From Candidatus Omnitrophota bacterium (GTDB taxonomy: Bacteria; Omnitrophota; Omnitrophia; Omnitrophales; Aquincolibacteriaceae), in contig JBDRCT010000033.1 in assembly GCA_043821445.1 (NCBI GenBank), positions 5,391 to 69,390 on the forward strand: 64,000 nucleotides of DNA, read 5' to 3'. Position 1 is the first letter of the stretch; each line of letters begins with the position of its first letter. Positions 24,383-35,554 of the stretch are shown here, in pieces. A model generated the notes under the pieces. The model worked only from the letters and a program-made list of their open reading frames with translations, searched no databases and had not been told where the DNA came from. The position numbers and the translations under genes are program-made.

Positions 24383-24488
24383 CCCCGTTAGAAAAAAACG
24401 GGATGTTGCTTTTGGTTATTTTACGCGTCTCTTCTCGCCACGCTTCTTCCTGTGTTCTGCAACAACCGGTGTCAGTTTTCTAACGGGG
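24383..24488 (+). mobile_element. MITE-like element of the same TIR family (copy 2, ~106 bp)
   Basis: CCCCGTTAGAAAAAAACGGG ... TTTTCTAACGGGG; right terminus provides the last three codons and the TAG stop of etfA. Confidence 0.55.
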
Positions 24489-25517
24489 TGAAGCGAGGAG
24501 CTCGTTCACCTTGGCCATAACGGCGAAGGCATCGGCCACGTAGAGCACATCGGCCTTCCCTTGGGCCCAGCCGCAATTGGCGTCCATATTGACCGCGCGG
24601 CGTTCGTTGATAAAGCGCCAGCCGACCACGTGCGGTTCTTCTCCGTGACAGCAGGTGGAAAGGCCCTTCGGATGACGCGGCGTGGCGCCGGTCTGTCCGA
24701 CCTGGTTGAGATGGCTCATGAAGGAAAGCACCGCTTCCCCTTCCGACCCCTGGTCCACGAGCGATTTGCTGCTCCCGAGCGAGGCCTTGGCGTGTTTCAA
24801 GAAATCAAGAATATGTTTTTCGGCTTCCTTGGCATGGATCTGGCCATCCACCTGTTTTTTGGTCCATCCGGCACCCGCTACGAGCAGCACCGCGGCCTCC
24901 GGGCGAATGGTCTGCGCGTCTGCGGAAGGCGCTTCAACACCCGTCACTTTTGTGCGCTTTTCCTGGTCCGTCACAGCAACGGCAACCGCTTCCATTTTCG
25001 CCGCGCCTTTGGCCCCCTGCCACACCTCGAACACGCCGGAATCCACGGCGAGGATCCACGGCCGCGCCGCGCGAGTCAGTGTCGCCAACATGCGCTGACG
25101 ATAGTACCAGCGCTGGACCTGCAAAACGCCGCCGGTGAACTGTAGGCCGCTCACATGCGTATCGATCGTGGCCTTTAAACGGAATGCCGCGCCGGGCAAT
25201 GCCCTGGAAAAACGGGACGTTGCAGGGGCAACGATGATCGTCGCTCCCGAAGCGGTTCCGATGGCTTCCGCGGCTTTCACATCCGTTGCGTAACGCGAGG
25301 TCCCGAAATCAGCACCGCTCACGCCGAGCATTTTTGCTGCGCCGCATGCCGCGATCGAATCCGCGGCGGCCTGGACATTCTCCCCGACAAGACCGACGGT
25401 AAGCGTGGAACCCGCGAGGCCTTTCTGGACCTCAAGCGCCGCGTTTAAGGTTTCAAGCGCGACCTTCGGAAGAAGGCCGTTTGCATCCGTATGAGCTAAA
25501 AAGAGTATTTTTTCCAT
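24480..25517 (-). CDS. etfA: electron transfer flavoprotein alpha subunit
   Basis: 345 aa, EtfA N-domain and FAD-binding C-domain; last codons (SPR-stop) are encoded by the terminal inverted repeat of a MITE copy. Confidence 0.85.
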   Translation of the reverse strand: MEKILFLAHTDANGLLPKVALETLNAALEVQKGLAGSTLTVGLVGENVQAAADSIAACGAAKMLGVSGADFGTSRYATDVKAAEAIGTASGATIIVAPATSRFSRALPGAAFRLKATIDTHVSGLQFTGGVLQVQRWYYRQRMLATLTRAARPWILAVDSGVFEVWQGAKGAAKMEAVAVAVTDQEKRTKVTGVEAPSADAQTIRPEAAVLLVAGAGWTKKQVDGQIHAKEAEKHILDFLKHAKASLGSSKSLVDQGSEGEAVLSFMSHLNQVGQTGATPRHPKGLSTCCHGEEPHVVGWRFINERRAVNMDANCGWAQGKADVLYVADAFAVMAKVNELLASPR

Positions 25518-25786
25518 TATAGCCGTCCCCCCGTTAGAGATAGGAAGCGCTTCAATCGATTCTTCAAAAAACGTTTCCCCATCCCTGTTTTTAAATATCG
25601 TTCCCTTACTACAGCATCATTGATATCTATACAAGCTTCGTAATAAATTACCTCGAAAGGACCGCGCCCTTTAGTTGAAGCAACCCTGCCCTGCGAATGC
25701 TCCTTGAAGCGCTTCCGTAAATCTTTGCAAAATCCGGTGTAGAATTTTTTATCCCTCTGACTTTGCAAAACATACGTATAAAACAT
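25517..25786 (-). CDS. small stand-alone GIY-YIG nuclease-family protein (YhbQ/UPF0213-like)
   Basis: MFYTYVLQSQRDKKFYTGFCKDLRKRFKEHSQG...GPFEVIYYE...ERYLK matches the GIY-YIG catalytic core; lies between etfB and etfA, inside a 281-bp element with CCCCGTTAGAGA/TCTCTAACGGGG termini; its TAA stop overlaps the etfA ATG. Confidence 0.75.
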   Translation of the reverse strand: MFYTYVLQSQRDKKFYTGFCKDLRKRFKEHSQGRVASTKGRGPFEVIYYEACIDINDAVVRERYLKTGMGKRFLKNRLKRFLSLTGGRL

Positions 25787-25809: not shown

Positions 25810-26619
25810 TTAACCTCTTATCCAGGTTACGATCTCTTGGGCGATCTCTTCGACCGGCGTATCTTTGACGATGCGTGTCTGGCGCTGCTGCTTCGGCAGC
25901 TCCACGCTTGCGAATTTGATGGCGTCGGTCTTGAGCGCCGCGGGGGTCGCCTTCTGAAGGGCCGGCATAATGGTACGCATGTTCGTCATCCCGACCTGAG
26001 GATTGTTCGGCGGTTCCGGAAGATTTCCGGTCGCCCATCCGATCACGGCCGGGGCCCCGGCGCATGTGGAAACCAGGTATTGCCCGCCCTCGATACGCTC
26101 GAGGACCCTGAACGAGCCGTCCGGCTGGACCTTGAGTTCGTCGGCTGCAAGAAATACGTCATGGATCCCGAGCTGTTCGGCGATCATCTGCATCGTGGTC
26201 CCCGCGTCACGCGAAGCGGAGGAACAGCCGCCGAAGACGAGAAGCTTCGTTTTATCAAGTCCCGGGATCTTCTCGATCGCCCCGGCCAGGGCCGCCGCGA
26301 CTTCCCTTGAATCCATAAAACCGCTCGCGGAACCGTCAAGGCACACAAGCTCGAAGGGGACCTTCTGGGCGATGATCATCATGAGCTGTTGGAGCTTGGC
26401 TTTGGGCCCGAGGCTTAGGAGCGTCACCTTGCTTCCCGGGTTCTGCTTCGCGAGATTTGAGGCCTCAAAAAGGGAGTGCCCCGCCCACGGGTCCAGCACC
26501 GAAGGCAGCATCATTTCATTCTTAAGAGCGGGTCCGGTCGCCCCCTGGATCGGCTCCAGCGTCTGGAGCGGGTCCGGCACCAGACTCCCGCAGACTACGA
26601 TGTTAAAAGCTGTCGTCAT
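25810..26619 (-). CDS. etfB: electron transfer flavoprotein beta subunit
   Basis: 269 aa, EtfB fold (MTTAFNIVVCGSLVPD...LLSLGP...). Confidence 0.85.
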   Translation of the reverse strand: MTTAFNIVVCGSLVPDPLQTLEPIQGATGPALKNEMMLPSVLDPWAGHSLFEASNLAKQNPGSKVTLLSLGPKAKLQQLMMIIAQKVPFELVCLDGSASGFMDSREVAAALAGAIEKIPGLDKTKLLVFGGCSSASRDAGTTMQMIAEQLGIHDVFLAADELKVQPDGSFRVLERIEGGQYLVSTCAGAPAVIGWATGNLPEPPNNPQVGMTNMRTIMPALQKATPAALKTDAIKFASVELPKQQRQTRIVKDTPVEEIAQEIVTWIRG

Positions 26620-26838: not shown

Positions 26839-26929
26839 TAAACCTTCCCTATTGAATGATTTCTGGGGAAACCGCGTCTTTATTGGGTCACTGGGCGGAC
26901 ATTATAATGAGGGAACTACTTTTCGGCTA

Positions 26930-27012
26930 GTCCCAATTCCATTCAATCGAAGCGAAGCTGAGATTGGGGCAATCCTGGCTACCATTTTTCAAAAGAAAAC
27001 AAAAGTCAGGGC
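26930..27012 (+). repeat. family B repeat with downstream hairpin module
   Basis: GTCCCAATTCCATTCAATCGAAGCGAAGCTGAGATTGGGGCAATCCTGGCTACCATTTTTCAAAAGAAAACAAAAGTCAGGGCAG. Confidence 0.5.
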
Positions 27013-27108
27013 AGTATCTTTTTGTTCAAGTACGCTAAAGACCCGGTCTTAAAAGGCTCTCAAAGACCGGGTCTTGGAATGGGTGTGCGGGGACTCACCC
27101 GTCTCTGC

Positions 27109-27696: not shown

Positions 27697-27883
27697 AGGA
27701 TCTTTGGGAGTTAAGTGATGTGACTCCGGAATTGAACGGGCTTACCTCTCCCCGCGGACGGCATCCGGTTTACTGTAGTGGGTCCCCCGAATTTAAAAGG
27801 GAGCTGTCCGAAATGACCAGCCCCCTTCATCAATGAAGCTAACAAACATTCCTTGAGCTTTATCGCTTTCCGTTTCTTATTTA

Positions 27884-28249
27884 TTACGTTTTAACTGGCT
27901 TCAGCTCCGCATAATAATGTTCATTTTCAAATCGATAAGCCGCCCCAGTAATTAAATCGATAATACTGCCAAAGAGCCAAAACCACGGGGATAGCTCATT
28001 TGCAACCAACATTGTCTTATCTTCATACCCTTCTTTCTTGAACGTAATGTATTCGTCCCTTTTTCTTTTTAATATCGCTGCCGTCGGCGTTTCGCCCAAA
28101 CCGACTCCTCCAGCACTAAAGATTTTGGCTCCAGTAGGGGCAGAATCAAAAGAAATTTGCTCCTTTCCTCCATTAGCTATAGTCATACAACCCGAAAAGC
28201 TAATTAGCACTATTGGAATCAAAAATACAGCTAACGCTCTCTTCATCAT
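27884..28249 (-). CDS. lipoprotein, unknown function (low-GC island)
   Basis: MMKRALAVFLIPIVLISFSGC lipobox; region ~40% GC versus ~57% for the window. Confidence 0.5.
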   Translation of the reverse strand: MMKRALAVFLIPIVLISFSGCMTIANGGKEQISFDSAPTGAKIFSAGGVGLGETPTAAILKRKRDEYITFKKEGYEDKTMLVANELSPWFWLFGSIIDLITGAAYRFENEHYYAELKPVKT

Positions 28250-28441
28250 ACGCCCCCCCTTGCTTTGTGATTTTTACAGTTAGATTGCATTTTACTCCCG
28301 CCTCCTAGTCCTGCCTATTCAAAAAAGTCGAATGGTACCCCGCCAGAGGCGGACAGGCGGGTTCACCACAGTGCTGCTTCGCTGCAAAAAGAGCGGCTAC
28401 TTTGGGATCACGTTATGCGCCTGTCCCCTTTTCGGTGACTG

Positions 28442-29452
28442 TCACCCGCCTAGAAGCAGATACCCTTCTGGAAGCTTTGCGGCACCTTCTATAATTATTT
28501 CTTCTTCACATGTAAAGGTTTGGGCTCCTTTGCTATAGTCTTTCCATCGTTTATCATAAATTTTGCGATCAATAAGAGATATGTCATCTGTGCGCTCTTT
28601 TGCTACAGTCTTGAGATGAAAACTTCTTCCGAGCAAAATTCCGCCACAATCTGTTAGTATATATCGGTTATGCAACTCATCGCCGCCTTCTCTCTTCCGC
28701 CATCTAATAAATGTAACTTTTAAGCCTTTGGGAATACATCGTGGCAGAAGCTTTTCACAACAATCCTTAAAATACTTAGGATCTTTGCTATTACAGGATT
28801 CGAAGTTAACATGCATTTCAACAACTATGTCTTTGAGACTTCCCTCTTCACGATATTTGCAAAGCTCTTCCAAAAAATGTTTTAAAAAAATTGTAATTTT
28901 AGAATCTTCTGGCGAAAAATGAGGATCAATAAATTTAACGAATTGACAGATTCGAAGCATTGGCGAAACTGCTTGAGCCATTGCTACCGGCTCCATATTG
29001 ATAGTTTCGCCCAGGGACATTTCCCATTTCGCAGATCCTTCATGCTTTAAATCCTTTGGATTAATAATGGCCTTTTCAAGATCCGTAGCAACTTCTGCAA
29101 CGATTGCTTGAAATGGTATGGATTCATGAGCCGATAAAGCATTTTCGAGCCAACTATCTCCTTCTCTCCAATTATGATAAACGCGCTGTACCATAACCTC
29201 ACAAACACTTTGTATAAATTCCGTTAAAGCATGTAACTCCTGCTGCCTCTTTGCTTCCTCTTGCGGATTTTGAGGGGGTGAAATTGAGACTTCTTTTTGG
29301 TAGGCTCCTTCAACTTTTTTTTTCCAGTCCTTAGGAAAACGAGACAAAATGCGCGGCTTCCCAATGCCGAATTCCCCCTTGAAATCTTTCGCAGAATTTC
29401 GGTGGTAACACTTGGCTGCTACGTTTGGATCGAGAGCGTATTCGAAAATCAT
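28442..29452 (-). CDS. uncharacterised 336-aa partner protein of the island ATPase (candidate effector)
   Basis: ATG 3 nt downstream of the ATPase stop (translational coupling); no domain confidently recognisable by eye; C-terminal ELHNRYILTDCGGILLGRSF loosely resembles an HxK/R(x)4D(x)6G HKD/PLD-type motif. Confidence 0.6.
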   Translation of the reverse strand: MIFEYALDPNVAAKCYHRNSAKDFKGEFGIGKPRILSRFPKDWKKKVEGAYQKEVSISPPQNPQEEAKRQQELHALTEFIQSVCEVMVQRVYHNWREGDSWLENALSAHESIPFQAIVAEVATDLEKAIINPKDLKHEGSAKWEMSLGETINMEPVAMAQAVSPMLRICQFVKFIDPHFSPEDSKITIFLKHFLEELCKYREEGSLKDIVVEMHVNFESCNSKDPKYFKDCCEKLLPRCIPKGLKVTFIRWRKREGGDELHNRYILTDCGGILLGRSFHLKTVAKERTDDISLIDRKIYDKRWKDYSKGAQTFTCEEEIIIEGAAKLPEGYLLLGG

Positions 29453-29455
29453 TGA

Positions 29456-31102
29456 TTAAAAGAGCTCCTTTGATCGTTCTGCAAAAAAACCTTCCGGCCA
29501 AGGCCTTAAAAATTCACCTTCCGCGTTAATCGGAATATGAATTATTTCGGATCCTTGCTTTCCTCTCTGAGCATATAAAACAGCCAGCTGTTCTGGTTTT
29601 AATGCAAACTCACCCTTAGATAACTCGCCATGCGTTGTCTCTCGGATGCGACGCAATAAACGGAGAATTAAATGTTCACTGTGCGTTTCGATTATAAAAT
29701 GATTGTTGCGTGGCTCTTTAATACTGCTGATGAGCAAATCTCCAAGATCGGCTTGTAGACGTGGGTGTATATGAACCTCGGGCTGCTCAATAGTTATAAC
29801 TTGTCTATCCGCTGCCAGACTTTGCACGATGAACGGAAGAATTTGGCTGATGCCAAATCCGACATCTTGAAGACAGACATCAACGCTCGGTTTTCTCAGG
29901 CTATCAACTAAACGAACTTCGAAAAGATCTTTAGCTCGTTTTGTTAGCGGAGAAACTTTTAGTTTATACCCAATTTCTAGCTGTTTCAGCCATTGATTGG
30001 TTTGTTTCAAAAGTTTTGGGTTCCTAAGCAAAAGATCGGGTAAGTGATCTCCTTTATATCCAACATTTTTTGGATTTGTACCCGTAAATATATACCACCG
30101 TTCCGGAGGCATCCTATAGGGCCCCAAGGGAAACACTTCCTGTAAATTATTTTGCAGTCCTCTTCCAATAATCGTGGCCATTCGTTCTAAGTCCAAATAA
30201 AATACCATATCAGTTTCATCCATCGTTCTGATGACATCTTGTTCGGGCAGCTCTTCGTTTGAAGAAAGTGGAATGCCAAATGGGATAAATCCGCTTAACC
30301 CTAGAATGGTTTTCACCTCTCGTTTTATTATTCTGTCTACAAATGCTTTATAATCAAAATTCCCGGAATAAAACTCAACGGCCGCATTGATCTCTTTTAT
30401 CCGTTTTTCGTAAATCTCGGAGCCCTCTTGCTCATCAACAATTCTTGAATCTTTCCTGCGCTGTTGAACTTTTAACGATCTTTGCAGCTCGGTAACGATT
30501 GTTTGAGCATTTGTTTTTGCATTTTTAAAAAAAGAATCCCATATTAAAGGATTGTCTGTAATCCAAGAACATTGGACGCCGCTAATATCCCTTTTTAATG
30601 TTTGCCGCTTTGATCGAGGAAAGAAGAGAAGTCCTCCCATTTCGTGTTGCTGTTCTGCTGTAAAGGTAATTGGAATAAGTTTTGCGAAATGCACGTCCTC
30701 ATTTTGGCAATACATATAAAGATCGATTTCTTTTAATTGCACTTCACTTTGTACTGAGCGTCGTTGAAATGACACCTTTATTCCACAGAGAGAAGATGGC
30801 CATTTTTTAACGTAACGCGTAGGCGGCATACTAAACCTTAAAAAGAATTTTAATTCTCTTTCTAAATCGTGATCAAATATCAACTCTTGAAAGCTTCCTA
30901 AATCAACCAGCCCATTTTCAGCTCGAGGCAATAATGTTGCATTGTCACGGTCTTCCACTGTTTGCTTCAATAAACTTATAGCCTGCAACACGGAGCTTTT
31001 GCCTGCACTATTCTGTCCAAAAATTAATGTTATGGGTGCAAATGGTATTCGAGTTCTTTCACCGAAAGCTTTGAAATTTTCAAGCTCCAATAATTCCAAC
31101 AT
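29456..31102 (-). CDS. ABC/SMC-type AAA ATPase (AAA_15/AAA_21-like; OLD/AbiL/PARIS/Septu-class defence ATPase architecture)
   Basis: N-terminal MLELLELENFKAFGERTRIPFAPITLIFGQNSAGKSSVLQA Walker A; C-terminal VITIEQPEVHIHP Walker B and IIETHSEHL H-loop; long central insertion; trimmed from ORF 29456..31189. Confidence 0.8.
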   Translation of the reverse strand: MLELLELENFKAFGERTRIPFAPITLIFGQNSAGKSSVLQAISLLKQTVEDRDNATLLPRAENGLVDLGSFQELIFDHDLERELKFFLRFSMPPTRYVKKWPSSLCGIKVSFQRRSVQSEVQLKEIDLYMYCQNEDVHFAKLIPITFTAEQQHEMGGLLFFPRSKRQTLKRDISGVQCSWITDNPLIWDSFFKNAKTNAQTIVTELQRSLKVQQRRKDSRIVDEQEGSEIYEKRIKEINAAVEFYSGNFDYKAFVDRIIKREVKTILGLSGFIPFGIPLSSNEELPEQDVIRTMDETDMVFYLDLERMATIIGRGLQNNLQEVFPLGPYRMPPERWYIFTGTNPKNVGYKGDHLPDLLLRNPKLLKQTNQWLKQLEIGYKLKVSPLTKRAKDLFEVRLVDSLRKPSVDVCLQDVGFGISQILPFIVQSLAADRQVITIEQPEVHIHPRLQADLGDLLISSIKEPRNNHFIIETHSEHLILRLLRRIRETTHGELSKGEFALKPEQLAVLYAQRGKQGSEIIHIPINAEGEFLRPWPEGFFAERSKELF

Positions 31103-31166
31103 AGGACACCTCTTTGTTTTGTAATAGGTACAGAAGGACTGGTGACAGTCACCTTTTGGGGGACAG

Positions 31167-31460
31167 TCATTCGCTAACGCGAACGGCATGTCCTTTTTCG
31201 ATGAGTTCGTTATTCAGATACAGATTGCTGCCGTTCTTTTGTTCTACGAAAACGTCACCCAGATATCGGTCGTACTTGTCGGACTTGACGGTTTTGATGG
31301 TTAGATAATCTACCCCTTTGAGGGTGGTTTCAACGAATTCCTTCGCTTCTATGCCGTCGCGGGTTTGGATCTCGGGGCAGTCGATACCGCGAACGGAAAT
31401 CGGAGGCGTTACTGCCAGTGCCAGGCTATTCCCCCACCCTAACTTTAGACTGCAGACCAT
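31167..31460 (-). pseudogene. 5'-truncated staphylococcal-nuclease (SNase)-like gene fragment
   Basis: Encodes only the C-terminal ~70 aa of an SNase domain (RGIDCPEI...KEAKEFVE...KSDKYDRYLGDVF...YLNNELIEKGHAVRV), paralogous (~75-80% nt identity) to the 3' end of gene 34331..35554; N-terminal VxDGDTI strands missing. Confidence 0.55.
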
Positions 31461-31641
31461 AGACCATCACCAAACCCCATTGGTTTGGTGCACCTTACGT
31501 GCCTGCCCTCCGATTTATCCGCCAAAGCGGTGTGGCGGACGCTTCAGTGGCGGGTCCCCGAGGCAATGGAATAGCACCGTGGTGTACCTGGTACCTTTCT
31601 ATTAGAAGTGCTTTTCCTGCCTTTGGATACGTTTAGCATAT

Positions 31642-31682
31642 CTTAGTATCCGTTAGTATCCGGTTGCATCCGGTTGTATCGA
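31642..31682. repeat. tandem ~10-bp repeats (TAGTATCCGGTTG-like x3.5) in the non-coding region at the island/purL boundary
   Basis: TAGTATCCGT TAGTATCCGGT TGCATCCGGT TGTATCG. Confidence 0.45.
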
Positions 31683-31878
31683 AATTAGCATAATTCTAGC
31701 ATAGTAGGAGGATCGGAAGAACTCTGGCCCATTCTGGGACTGGATGACTCCCCGAACTGGCCGGAAACATCATCTTCAAACTTTGGGTCAGAGTCCGTTA
31801 TAACCCCATCGCCTTATTTACATTTTGTATCAAGAAAAAGTGGTCTATTAAAACTTATCTCGTCTGTTTATCTTTTAC

Positions 31879-34330: not shown

Positions 34331-35554
34331 TCAATCGTGTACCCTGACCGCCAACCCTTTTTCTAAAAGTTCGTTATTAAGGTAGACCTCTTGCCCTTTA
34401 GCGTCAATAAGGAAGACATCCGCGAGGTAGCGGTCGTATTTATCTGATTTGACGGTCCTTATCAGAACCGGAGTAGCAGAGAGGCCGGAGGCAAGAGGCA
34501 GAGATCTTTCTTGTTTCTTTGTCTCTGTGCTTCTCAGCTTCTGTTCTACGAACTCTTTGGCTTCTTTACCTTCTTTGCTTTCGATCTCAGGGCAGTCAAT
34601 GCCGCGAAGGCGCAGGGTCTGAACACTACGCACGCCAAAGCCAAGATCGATAACGGCTTCGATCGTGTCGCCGTCGAGAACGCGGGACACCCAGGCGTGG
34701 TAAGTATAGAGGTCCTCAGAGGTCCGATGCGAGAGTCTGATCAGGTCCGAAGGCGACGAGCCCGCTTCCGGGAACGCTGGCTTCACTTCGATGATGGCCT
34801 CTTCCTTGAAACGGAGGTCTTTGGACGTTCTGTAATAATTGGAGAACCCGAGGTCAATGACCACCTTCCCGGTCTCAGGGCCCGCGGTGGCCTTGACCAT
34901 CTTGTAAGTCCCGGGCTTCCCGGGCTTGGCCGTGAGCGGGGTCTCTTCTTCCGGTGCTTGCGTTTCATTCCTTGCAGCTTTGCGCTTTTTCACTTCTTCA
35001 CGAAGCTTTCTGACCGGCCATTTTTCTTTGGAAGCAAGCGCTTCGACTTCTTCTCTTTCCTGGGTGTCATTGAGAGCAAGAAGTGATTCATAATGACCCC
35101 ACGTCAATTCATCGGACGTCCGATAAATCGGGTAGGTACGGGCAAATTGAAGCATGTACCGGAGCTCGGTTTCGCTGGTCCCCAGGTCCCCGGCCAATCG
35201 GACGAGGGTCCGGTCCGCATAATCCGCACGCTCTTTATGTTGAAGGACATGTTCGTCGATGAGTTTGCCGGTTTCCCAAGCCTCCCGGACCTTCTCCTGC
35301 TCCACAGCTTTTTCGACCCGGGCCTGGCTCTCCGAGCGCACCCCGCGGATCGCGGCCACCAGCTGATCGTAAGTCCCAACCTTTGACCCTTCATTCCAGA
35401 CCGGGTCTGGAATGGGTATCGCGTCCTCGGCCTGCAAAGACGGAGCCACAAGGATCATCATGAGGAAAACAGCGAGGGCACCAATCCCCAGTCCCACAGG
35501 GACTGCTGGGGAACGCTGTAGATTGGTACTGCGATCTGGGATCGTCTTTTTCAT
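34331..35554 (-). CDS. membrane-anchored/secreted nuclease: DUF1016_N (YhcG N-terminal)-like domain fused to a C-terminal SNase (thermonuclease) domain
   Basis: TM/signal segment; KLIDEHVLQHKERADYADRTLVRLAGDLG...LRYMLQFARTYP resembles the YhcG/DUF1016 N-domain; C-terminus VLDGDTIEAV...RGIDCPEI...DRYLADVF is an SNase fold; start trimmed to MKKTIPD. Confidence 0.65.
   Translation of the reverse strand: MKKTIPDRSTNLQRSPAVPVGLGIGALAVFLMMILVAPSLQAEDAIPIPDPVWNEGSKVGTYDQLVAAIRGVRSESQARVEKAVEQEKVREAWETGKLIDEHVLQHKERADYADRTLVRLAGDLGTSETELRYMLQFARTYPIYRTSDELTWGHYESLLALNDTQEREEVEALASKEKWPVRKLREEVKKRKAARNETQAPEEETPLTAKPGKPGTYKMVKATAGPETGKVVIDLGFSNYYRTSKDLRFKEEAIIEVKPAFPEAGSSPSDLIRLSHRTSEDLYTYHAWVSRVLDGDTIEAVIDLGFGVRSVQTLRLRGIDCPEIESKEGKEAKEFVEQKLRSTETKKQERSLPLASGLSATPVLIRTVKSDKYDRYLADVFLIDAKGQEVYLNNELLEKGLAVRVHD

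Follow-up and report, generated by a model that had tools for sequence, protein, structure and literature searches.

We analyzed a low-GC island in a 64-kb stretch of a Candidatus Omnitrophota bacterium genome (contig JBDRCT010000033.1 of assembly GCA_043821445.1; the whole stretch of 64,000 nucleotides is hereafter the window). The island spans positions 27750..31166 (left edge approximate, no strand assigned) and contains a two-gene cassette, encoding an ATP-binding cassette (ABC) ATPase and a partner protein, as well as a lipoprotein-like gene. Sliding-window GC is 0.37–0.46 in the island versus 0.51–0.63 in its flanks. The block of ~40% GC described in an earlier sequence-only reading of this DNA is borne out, with 40.6% over positions 27880–31110; the higher-GC surroundings also stand, but not the "~57% GC chromosome" of that reading, given that the window as a whole has 52.3% GC and local flanks reach up to 55–62%. 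The ATPase, partner, and lipoprotein-like genes have GC contents of 39.5%, 40.1%, and 40.7%, respectively, and the GC content at third codon positions (GC3) is 0.33–0.38 in these three genes versus 0.56–0.75 in arfB, purL, and the presumed etfAB genes. The two-gene cassette is thus compositionally foreign in this Omnitrophota genome. Both of its genes lie on the minus strand and are translationally coupled across a 3-nt gap, as the earlier reading had it; the junction reads TAA-TCA-ATG.

The first gene of the pair (29456..31102, minus strand) encodes a 548-aa ABC ATPase of the AAA_15/OLD-ABC type with a DUF3696 tail, resembling NsnB and HEC-03 in Pfam and PADLOC searches. A ribosome-binding site, AAAGAGG, recognized from the sequence, lies 6 nt upstream of the ATG (31109..31115, minus strand). 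A longer, 577-aa version of the protein, starting at 31189, is unlikely because its open reading frame (ORF) crosses a repeat element and comes within 22 nt of the stop codon of the neighboring ORF. The Pfam search recovered AAA_15 (1.6e-23), AAA_21 (8.2e-18), and DUF3696 (7.3e-6; 26.6 bits, above the cut-off of 22), in agreement with the AAA_15/AAA_21 (DUF3696-like) layout proposed previously. Among the PADLOC profile hidden Markov models, three were well ahead, namely HEC-03B (PDLC04148; 1.2e-53, 180.8 bits), NsnB (6.6e-53), and PDC-M55A (7.2e-51), the first two of which belong to defence systems. The AriA model reached 1.7e-24, mainly over the C-terminal part, and the AriA, GajA, PtuA, Old, and AbiLi models match the ATPase chiefly at the P-loop and Walker B segments. 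Models of housekeeping proteins scored far under their cut-offs (RecF, 27 of 172 bits; SbcC, 14 of 478; Rad50, 20 of 700), with SMC likewise reaching a small fraction.

Translation confirmed the Walker A, Walker B, and H-loop motifs quoted in the earlier reading, and their conservation was assessed in 80 family ATPases collected from loci related to the window pair. The Walker A motif, GQNSAGKSS (residues 29–37; 30992..31018, minus strand), corresponds to an invariant GxNSxGKS[ST]. It is followed by a variant ABC signature, GFGISQ (29843..29860, minus strand), in which GxG replaces SGG and residues G415, G417, and Q420 are present in 79–80 of the 80 proteins, and by a non-canonical Walker B, EQPEVHIHP (29762..29788, minus strand), with E439 and Q440 in 79/80 and the subsequent P, E, H, H, and P invariant. 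The H-loop, ETHSEH (29672..29689, minus strand), is invariant in 75–80 of 80, and the protein ends in the DUF3696 helical tail (residues 501–547; 29462..29602, minus strand; Pfam 7.3e-6). The family consensus (GxNSxGKS[ST], GxG[IV]SQ, E-Q-P-E-x-H-x-H-P, and ETHSEH) is therefore essentially invariant throughout. Typical ABC ATPases have D-E at the Walker B position where this family has E-Q. The NsnB ATPase of the Menshen system carries the same GxG substitution in the signature, whereas its Walker B reads E-N (Li et al. 2025, PMC12065111).

The second gene (28442..29452, minus strand) encodes a 336-aa partner, for which the earlier reading could name no domain. At the sequence level this holds, since neither the protein nor its profile had a significant match in Pfam, NCBIfam, PADLOC, or PHROGs, and both gave only chance-level matches against Protein Data Bank sequences. 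Structure prediction with AlphaFold 2 yielded a confident model (mean predicted local distance difference test score 91.1, predicted template modeling score 0.89) consisting of an N-terminal PIN-like domain (residues 1–140; 29033..29452, minus strand) and a C-terminal domain with the phospholipase D (PLD) fold (residues ~145–325; 28478..29020, minus strand) of the MIT_C or "HRD" type; the two domains display the PIN fold and the PLD alpha/beta fold, respectively. A comparison table for the partner lists, as figures without a label, 9.8 for a Streptomyces PLD, 9.2 for the MIT_C domain of MITD1 (2ymb), 9.1 for NucT (6ehi), 8.7 for SauUSI, 8.2 for Nuc, 8.1 for Zucchini, 6.9 for NgoAVII, 6.8 for BfiI, and 6.3 for Tdp1. 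Among 38 homologous partners, sequence-level links to the same group were found with the PADLOC BrxL model (5/38, best 1.3e-5), Pfam MIT_C (1/38, 1e-3), and, weakly, PLDc_2 (1/38) and PADLOC NsnC (1/38, E = 0.03).

Two motifs stand out in the family alignment, with conservation scored in 182 members. The first, F-[VI]-D-P-[HY]-F, directly follows a beta strand (beta2; strands are taken from the model) and contains D176 (28925..28927, minus strand) and P177, each conserved in 97% of the sequences. The second, L-H-N-R-Y-I-L-T-D-x-G-G, includes the window segment HNRYILTD (28649..28672, minus strand), an HxR(x)4D variant of the HKD motif, in which H261 is conserved in 98%, N262 in 76% (D in 13%, the two together in 89%), R263 in 99%, and T267 in 97%, with D, E, or N at position 268. 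Measured against the full HxK(x)4D(x)6GSxN motif, the partner retains the histidine and the acidic or amide residue at 268, has K replaced by R, and lacks the GSxN part; each chain carries a single motif of the HKD type. The combination of an acidic residue after beta2 with an H-N/D-R motif is that of the PB-PLD1 domain of the Menshen effector NsnC, which is MIT_C-like, has an H-D-R motif, and is also found at BrxL C-termini (Li et al. 2025, PMC12065111), and a 2026 survey of bacteriophage exclusion (BREX) systems counted 1,030 of 2,913 BrxL proteins with an HKD endoDNase carrying the K-to-R ("HRD") change (PMC12839542). Judged from conservation and the predicted fold, the HxR site belongs to a recognized subtype of PLD-fold domains, and no other feature of the family is better conserved; the earlier guess of a degenerate HKD/PLD nuclease motif, made from the HxR(x)4D pattern, was essentially right. 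In the N-terminal domain, the only conserved acidic positions are E4 (87%) and D/E8 (93%), with E/D103 at 63%, whereas a canonical PIN domain needs four acidic residues; by sequence, this domain looks like the "inactive PIN" (inPIN) of NsnC.

The partner belongs to a large family. A word-indexed search identified the 38 homologous partner clusters, at identities of no more than 39%, and an exhaustive profile search extended this to 3,090 clusters (50% identity) at E ≤ 1e-3, with 1,226 of them at 1e-30 or better; nearly all of these proteins are stand-alone and ~300 aa long. We fetched 80 further loci from species-representative genomes; of 83 non-redundant loci, 82 were long enough to judge. 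The fetched loci are scattered sporadically over Acidobacteriota, Binatota, Latescibacterota, Desulfobacterota, Planctomycetota, Gemmatimonadota, Chloroflexota, Betaproteobacteria, Leptospira, and other groups. The ATPase gene lies directly upstream of the partner gene in 80 of the 82 loci, the two genes overlapping by 4 or 1 nt or lying 2–3 nt apart, and in all metagenomic contexts examined the partner is 3′ of an AAA_15/DUF3696 ATPase. The same order and coupling thus recur widely, contrary to the caveat of the earlier reading that the two genes might not occur together elsewhere. In keeping with co-evolution, distances among the ATPases correlate with those among their partners (Mantel r = 0.48, p ≤ 0.001; 999 permutations gave at most 0.13). 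The other caveat, a conserved housekeeping repair system, failed on the foreign GC content, the absence of the pair next to purL in three relatives, the 27 versus 172 bits for RecF, and the sporadic distribution across phyla.

Tandem arrays of two or three pairs, mostly from Latescibacterota, occur at loci L004–L006, L034, L067, L072, L080, and L084. Within the arrays, the ATPase paralogues are 53–92% identical versus 20–26% for the partners (92% versus 23% at L034), and in the divergent partner copies just the PLD half is recognizable by sequence search, the PIN-like N-terminal part having diverged. Diverged partners beside conserved ATPases are typical of loci under arms-race selection.

The genomic surroundings of the family fall into distinct settings. 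At 33 of the 83 loci, the pair forms the 3′ end of a type I restriction-modification (R-M) operon, in the order hsdR, hsdM, hsdS, ATPase, and partner, all on the same strand; the median distance from hsdS to the ATPase gene is 8 nt. At 22 loci, the immediate neighbor encodes a sigma54 enhancer-binding protein (bEBP), and two more were recognized with Pfam, giving at least 24 (bEBP-linked loci include L001, L002, L016, L019, L021, L027, L031, L035, L037, L039, L044, L046, L050, L060, L063, L068, and L079); the remaining loci are bare pairs or tandem arrays. The R-M-embedded and bEBP-linked settings never coincide within the fetched flanks; in Corallococcus, a bEBP gene lies ahead of hsdR. The best NCBIfam match of the neighboring bEBPs is RtcR, at 327–341 bits and hence below the equivalog cut-off of 650, and one of them has a weak Pfam RtcR match. 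The RtcR alignment reaches the N-terminal CRISPR-associated Rossmann fold (CARF) region, and with the other bEBP models the match starts only at the AAA+ domain. A link to an RtcR-like activator has a precedent in defence, because RtcR homologues have been reported to head defence "superoperons" with type I R-M genes (Bell et al. 2024, PMC11090510).

A scan for near-consensus sigma54 promoters (TGGCACG-N4-TTGCW, with 10–12 of 12 positions matching, 33–270 nt upstream of the ATPase gene) was positive for 13 of 25 bEBP-linked ATPase genes and 6 of 27 without a recognized neighbor, versus none of the 32 R-M-embedded genes and none of 84 reverse-strand controls. The window has neither a bEBP gene nor a sigma54 promoter, and its pair has no R-M neighbor.

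Other genes next to the pair also point toward defence. On a plasmid of Methylocella tundrae, the order is hsdRMS-ATPase-partner-SIR2-DUF87/HerA, and on a Deinococcus plasmid the pair adjoins DUF2357 and AAA-ATPase genes with a McrBC-like look; elsewhere the neighbors include HEPN/MNT pairs and OLD-TOPRIM, ThiF-JAB, and UvrD-PD-(D/E)xK genes. The HEPN/MNT (nucleotidyltransferase) pairs recur beside the pair or inside the adjacent R-M operon at loci L012, L014, L015, L017, L029, and L065. Cultured bacteria with the pair include Methylocella tundrae (on the plasmid; WP_134493232/WP_134493230), Corallococcus exiguus (HJC22_07335 locus), Geomonas azotofigens Red51, and Geothermobacter hydrogeniphilus HR-1.

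The two named systems closest to the window pair are Menshen and HEC-03. Menshen (NsnA-NsnB-NsnC) is a validated defence system (Millman 2022) analyzed by Li et al. 2025 (PMC12065111). The window ATPase has the hallmarks of NsnB, namely the AAA_15 core, DUF3696 tail, GxG signature, and altered Walker B, and the partner has the architecture of NsnC, with an N-terminal, seemingly inactive PIN-like domain and a C-terminal effector domain, which in some NsnC proteins is likewise a PLD domain of the MIT_C type (PMC12065111). AlphaFold 3 models of a Menshen NsnB4-NsnC2 complex show the DUF3696 tail clamping the inPIN domain of the effector, and the Menshen pattern of a conserved NsnB and a polymorphic NsnC is mirrored by the tandem arrays described above (PMC12065111). 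By contrast, the third Menshen component, the sensor NsnA (ParB-DUF262 plus ParBDB), is missing: upstream of the window ATPase there is an SNase remnant and then purL, and no ParB-DUF262 gene was seen next to the pair in the window, in the neighbor clusters of the 83 loci, or in Pfam searches of the ORFs directly upstream of bare pairs. Conversely, no RtcR-like sigma54 activator, present at many copies of the window family, is reported for Menshen in PMC12065111.

HEC-03 consists of an ABC ATPase and a PIN-fold partner, embedded in another defence system (Hma), and is protective, with both genes needed (10.1101/2024.01.29.577857). Its two-gene layout is that of the window pair, and its ATPase model is the best PADLOC match of the window ATPase; its partner, however, is a VapC-like PIN effector, whereas the window partner is PIN-like with most catalytic acids apparently lost and is fused to a PLD-type domain. 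The HEC-03 partner model in PADLOC had no match at E ≤ 1 to the window partner or to the 38 family members, and where HEC-03 is embedded in Hma, the window family is embedded in type I R-M. As an aside on nomenclature, PDLC04148 is labeled HEC-03B in PADLOC-DB v2 and matches the ATPase, whereas in the preprint of Payne et al. the ATPase is HEC-03A and the PIN protein HEC-03B.

PARIS also pairs an OLD-type ABC ATPase with a separate nuclease and is linked to R-M through the sensing of anti-restriction proteins. However, its AriA model is far weaker on the window ATPase, its effector AriB is a DUF4435/TOPRIM protein, neither of which matches the PIN-like and PLD partner, and it is typically carried by phage satellites, whereas no homologue of the window partner was found in ~50,000 phage records. 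BrxL shares the K-to-R PLD subtype, but as the C-terminal domain of an MCM-type AAA+ ATPase that belongs to BREX; in the window family, the PLD domain follows a PIN-like domain, and the ABC ATPase is a protein of its own. PrrC and RloC, like the R-M-embedded pairs, are accessory effectors built into type I R-M loci, PrrC almost exclusively so (Payne et al., 10.1101/2024.01.29.577857); PrrC, however, is a single protein in which an ABC-type ATPase is fused to an anticodon nuclease whose effector domain is unrelated in sequence or fold to the window partner. In OLD and Gabija GajA, a TOPRIM domain is fused to the ATPase, which in the window ends in DUF3696 instead. Membership in PARIS, Gabija, OLD, AbiL, or Septu was ruled out, the similarity being of the generic P-loop/Walker B kind, with no matching effector.

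The sequence-only reading had raised the prospect of an undescribed two-gene system. In part this stands: no description of an ABC ATPase paired with a PIN-PLD protein was found in the literature searched, which did not include the survey of ABC-ATPase conflict systems by Krishnan et al. 2020. The survey of Li et al. was anchored on NsnA and that of Payne et al. was filtered for presence in more than 100 RefSeq genomes, and therefore both would miss a family of mostly uncultured phyla. The PIN-like plus PLD architecture itself, however, has a precedent in NsnC (PMC12065111), and the locus is probably a two-gene, NsnA-less system of the Menshen/HEC-03 kind rather than something wholly new.

Taken together, these comparisons suggest that the island pair is a two-gene conflict system, most likely anti-phage, of the class in which an ABC ATPase acts as sensor or transducer for a sequestered effector; we hold this to be the probable reading. 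It is favored because the closest homologues of the ATPase belong to validated systems (HEC-03 and Menshen), because the pair sits in R-M operons and beside other defence genes, and because the arrays exhibit effector polymorphism. The view of the pair as a defence-type module, put forward in the sequence-only reading, is accordingly supported by ATPase homology, genomic context, and co-occurrence, with defence activity as a prediction.

Our confidence in the detailed mechanism is lower than in the class. By analogy with Menshen, PARIS, and Septu, oligomers of the ATPase would hold partner monomers through DUF3696 tails clamping the PIN-like domain, keeping the effector inactive. A trigger would then lead to ATP-dependent release of the partner, as modeled on the AriA6-AriB3 complex of PARIS, in which effector monomers are sequestered, released in an ATP-dependent manner, and active as nuclease in the form of an AriB dimer (PMC11464382). 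Released partners would dimerize and thereby begin to cleave phosphodiester bonds, most probably those of nucleic acid, which would stop the invader or the infected cell. In PLD-fold enzymes with a single HKD motif, such as Nuc, Zucchini, and BfiI, each active site is assembled from two copies, and dimerization after release would thus be a natural on-switch for a domain with a single motif. The family-wide E-Q in Walker B suggests slow hydrolysis and an ATP-bound switch rather than a fast motor. The R-M-embedded copies could plausibly be guards that sense anti-restriction proteins or R-M failure, like PARIS; PrrC, a guard against anti-restriction, offers a parallel. The copies next to an RtcR-like activator would probably be expressed upon an RNA-damage signal. 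It is a tentative suggestion, and one we consider less likely than not when taken as a whole, that the pair is an autonomous, NsnA-less relative of Menshen which either sits at the end of type I R-M operons as a guard set off by the loss of restriction or is induced by an RNA-damage signal through an RtcR-like CARF-sigma54 route, acts by release and dimerization, and uses a hypervariable PIN-like domain as an adaptor insulating the members of an array from one another.

Several observations weigh against the conflict-system reading. The absence of the partner from the ~50,000 phage records and from PADLOC leaves it with no direct link to the effector of any validated system. Among solved structures, the MIT_C domain of MITD1 comes closest to the PLD subtype, and to our knowledge no catalytic activity has been reported for it. 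In the loop after the HxR motif, the window copy has S in place of G277 (G in 96% of the family) and K in place of D281 (D in 89%), and because of these residues, together with the missing R-M or bEBP neighbor and sigma54 promoter, this copy could be weakened or regulated differently. Control of the sigma54/RtcR type is also compatible with a role in stress or repair, and the interaction between ATPase and partner is one that we infer by analogy with Menshen, PARIS, and Septu.

Of the competing explanations, the one that survives best, while still appearing unlikely to us, is an addiction or toxin–antitoxin-like stabilization of mobile DNA, in which the partner would be the toxin and the ATPase its antidote. 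The foreign composition of the cassette and the dispersed repeat around it would fit such a role, as would the presence of the pair on four plasmids, one copy adjoining a plasmid replication gene, the insertion sequence near the pair in Corallococcus, and the toxicity of HEC-03 upon induction (Payne et al. 2024, 10.1101/2024.01.29.577857). However, most copies are chromosomal, in R-M operons or under dedicated regulators, the pair is absent from the ~50,000 phage records, and the tested ATPase–effector pairs of this class act in defence; the two roles are not mutually exclusive.

Slightly less probable is a stress-induced system for nucleic-acid repair or processing, made up of a RecF/Rad50-like ATPase and a Tdp1-like PLD phosphodiesterase with a PIN-like domain for RNA binding, and turned on by an RtcR-like activator as rtcBA is. 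Here the regulator loses its weight, as RtcR homologues are already known at the head of defence superoperons with type I R-M genes (PMC11090510); nor would repair sit easily with 33 loci at which the pair is built into R-M operons, a sporadic, island-like spread, tandem arrays with hyper-diverged partners, an ATPase most closely related to those of validated defence systems, and negligible scores with the RecF, SbcC, and Rad50 models. A comparably small chance attaches to a variant that concerns the effector, namely that the PLD-like domain is non-catalytic, binding membrane or ligand like MIT_C of MITD1, and that the PIN-like domain or the ATPase complex is the effector. The 97–99% conservation of D176, H261, and R263 is that expected of catalytic residues, the same HxR variant is interpreted as an active nuclease in both PMC12065111 and PMC12839542, and it is the PIN-like domain that has two conserved acidic positions of four and diverges beyond recognition in the arrays. 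Finally, we consider it very improbable that the pair is a non-functional remnant of Menshen that lost its NsnA sensor: although the ATPase matches NsnB at 6.6e-53, the partner has the PIN-like plus PB-PLD1-like architecture of NsnC, one family member weakly matches the NsnC model, and two residues close to the active site are unusual in the window copy, no ParB-DUF262 gene was seen beside the pair in the window, at the 83 loci, or upstream of bare pairs, and a family of 3,090 clusters, with catalytic-type motifs that do not vary in either protein and with 75 pairs found intact and coupled, argues for selection as a two-gene unit.

If the conflict-system reading is correct, the family expands a major theme of bacterial immunity, that of ABC-ATPase-plus-effector pairs represented by PARIS, Septu, Gabija, Menshen, and HEC-01 to -03, by a large branch which extends over many mostly uncultured phyla and is invisible to current annotation with Pfam, NCBIfam, and PADLOC; RefSeq labels the partner "hypothetical protein." A Menshen-type ATPase/effector core may then be able to work without a ParB-DUF262 sensor, which bears on the question of which component senses infection. 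The two settings, as the last genes of type I R-M operons and next to an RtcR-like activator with sigma54 promoters, provide testable hypotheses on the trigger, and the conserved D…HxR site lends itself to studies of the K-to-R PLD variant, also carried by roughly one-third of BrxL proteins, in which its activity is inferred.

In the window, the cassette is bracketed by a repeat resembling repetitive extragenic palindromic (REP) elements. The upstream arm (31141..31166, no strand assigned; coding strand CTGTCCCCCAAAAGGTGACTGTCACC) begins directly after the stop codon of the SNase remnant, and the downstream, inverted arm (28421..28446, no strand assigned) overlaps the partner stop codon; over 26 nt it is 81% complementary to the upstream arm. 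This 26-nt inverted repeat, CTGTCCCC-N5-GGTGACNGTCACC, encloses precisely the ATPase and partner genes. The core palindrome GGTGACNGTCACC has just two sites in the 64 kb, with 0.07 expected, and the pairing of the arms has a z score of 6.9 relative to shuffled sequences. Exact matches to the REP-like motif were found in 47 metagenome contigs (loci L091–L137), mostly right 3′ of stop codons, sometimes in direct or inverted pairs 0.7–2.4 kb apart, and often preceded by a terminator-like hairpin, GGGGACAGGC-loop-GCCTGTCCCC-TTTT, and followed by TGTTTT. A reading of the inverted repeat as the ends of a mobile cassette that characterizes the gene pair was rejected: none of 70 other ATPase–partner loci has a comparable bracketing repeat, and the 47 contigs over which the motif is dispersed are unrelated and lack the pair. 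The repeat may mark how the cassette was acquired in this genome.

The borders of the island largely correspond to those in the sequence-only reading, with arfB on one side (Pfam RF-1 domain, 2e-27) and, on the other, a 5′-truncated SNase-like pseudogene of 97 aa (31167..31460, minus strand; Pfam SNase, 1.1e-8). The truncation is evident from a full-length, 367-aa SNase-like homologue at locus L107, which has the same …VSE* end followed by the same REP-like motif. The Pfam match of the remnant, covering profile positions 2–75 of 107, had given rise to the idea of a 3′ truncation; insertion of the cassette into the SNase gene with loss of its 3′ part was ruled out by the identical end and repeat of the L107 homologue, and no SNase remnant was found beyond the cassette. 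A longer SNase-like paralogue, homologous to both the L107 protein and the remnant, is located just upstream of purL (~34331–34740, minus strand), so that purL is flanked by an apparently fuller SNase-like copy on one side and a fragment of the same family on the other. The tandem repeat of the bordering non-coding stretch was also confirmed, with 3.7 copies of a 10-nt unit, TAGTATCCGG (31644–31680), in the ~420-nt gap between purL and the SNase remnant (31461–31878); an Rfam scan of the non-coding flanks, this gap included, had no match at E ≤ 0.1. There is no integrase among the ORFs at 25–34 kb, as had been noted, and no tRNA gene in the window. The pair is missing downstream of purL in three relatives (PurL 80–84% identical), and an empty-site comparison with these three closest PurL relatives was set aside, as they lack synteny downstream of purL and do not define the insertion boundaries.

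The lipoprotein-like gene (27884..28249, minus strand; 121 aa; GC 0.407, GC3 0.377) lies in the low-GC island, outside the repeat-bounded cassette. It has a weak match to PEGA (3.8e-3), below the Pfam cut-off, and in neighbor clustering it is not a conserved neighbor of the ATPase–partner pair at other loci.

Further from the island, a stand-alone GIY-YIG ORF of 89 aa (25517–25786, minus strand; Pfam 5.7e-14) lies in a region of ~48% local GC between ORFs 24480–25517 and 25810–26619, which we take to be an electron-transfer-flavoprotein gene pair; the ORF could represent a small insertion of the selfish or homing type. In the intergenic region between arfB and ORF 25810–26619, a stretch of ~87 nt (26927–27013) shares 77–80% identity with DNA of non-coding appearance in three REP-containing contigs (L103, L128, and L114), with a conserved core GTCCCAA...AATTGAAGCGAAGCTGAGATTGGGGC and no Rfam match. 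Seven of its 29 predicted base pairs covary, among just 3 distinct sequences, and the stretch might be a short coding region (ORF 26852–27052, plus strand).

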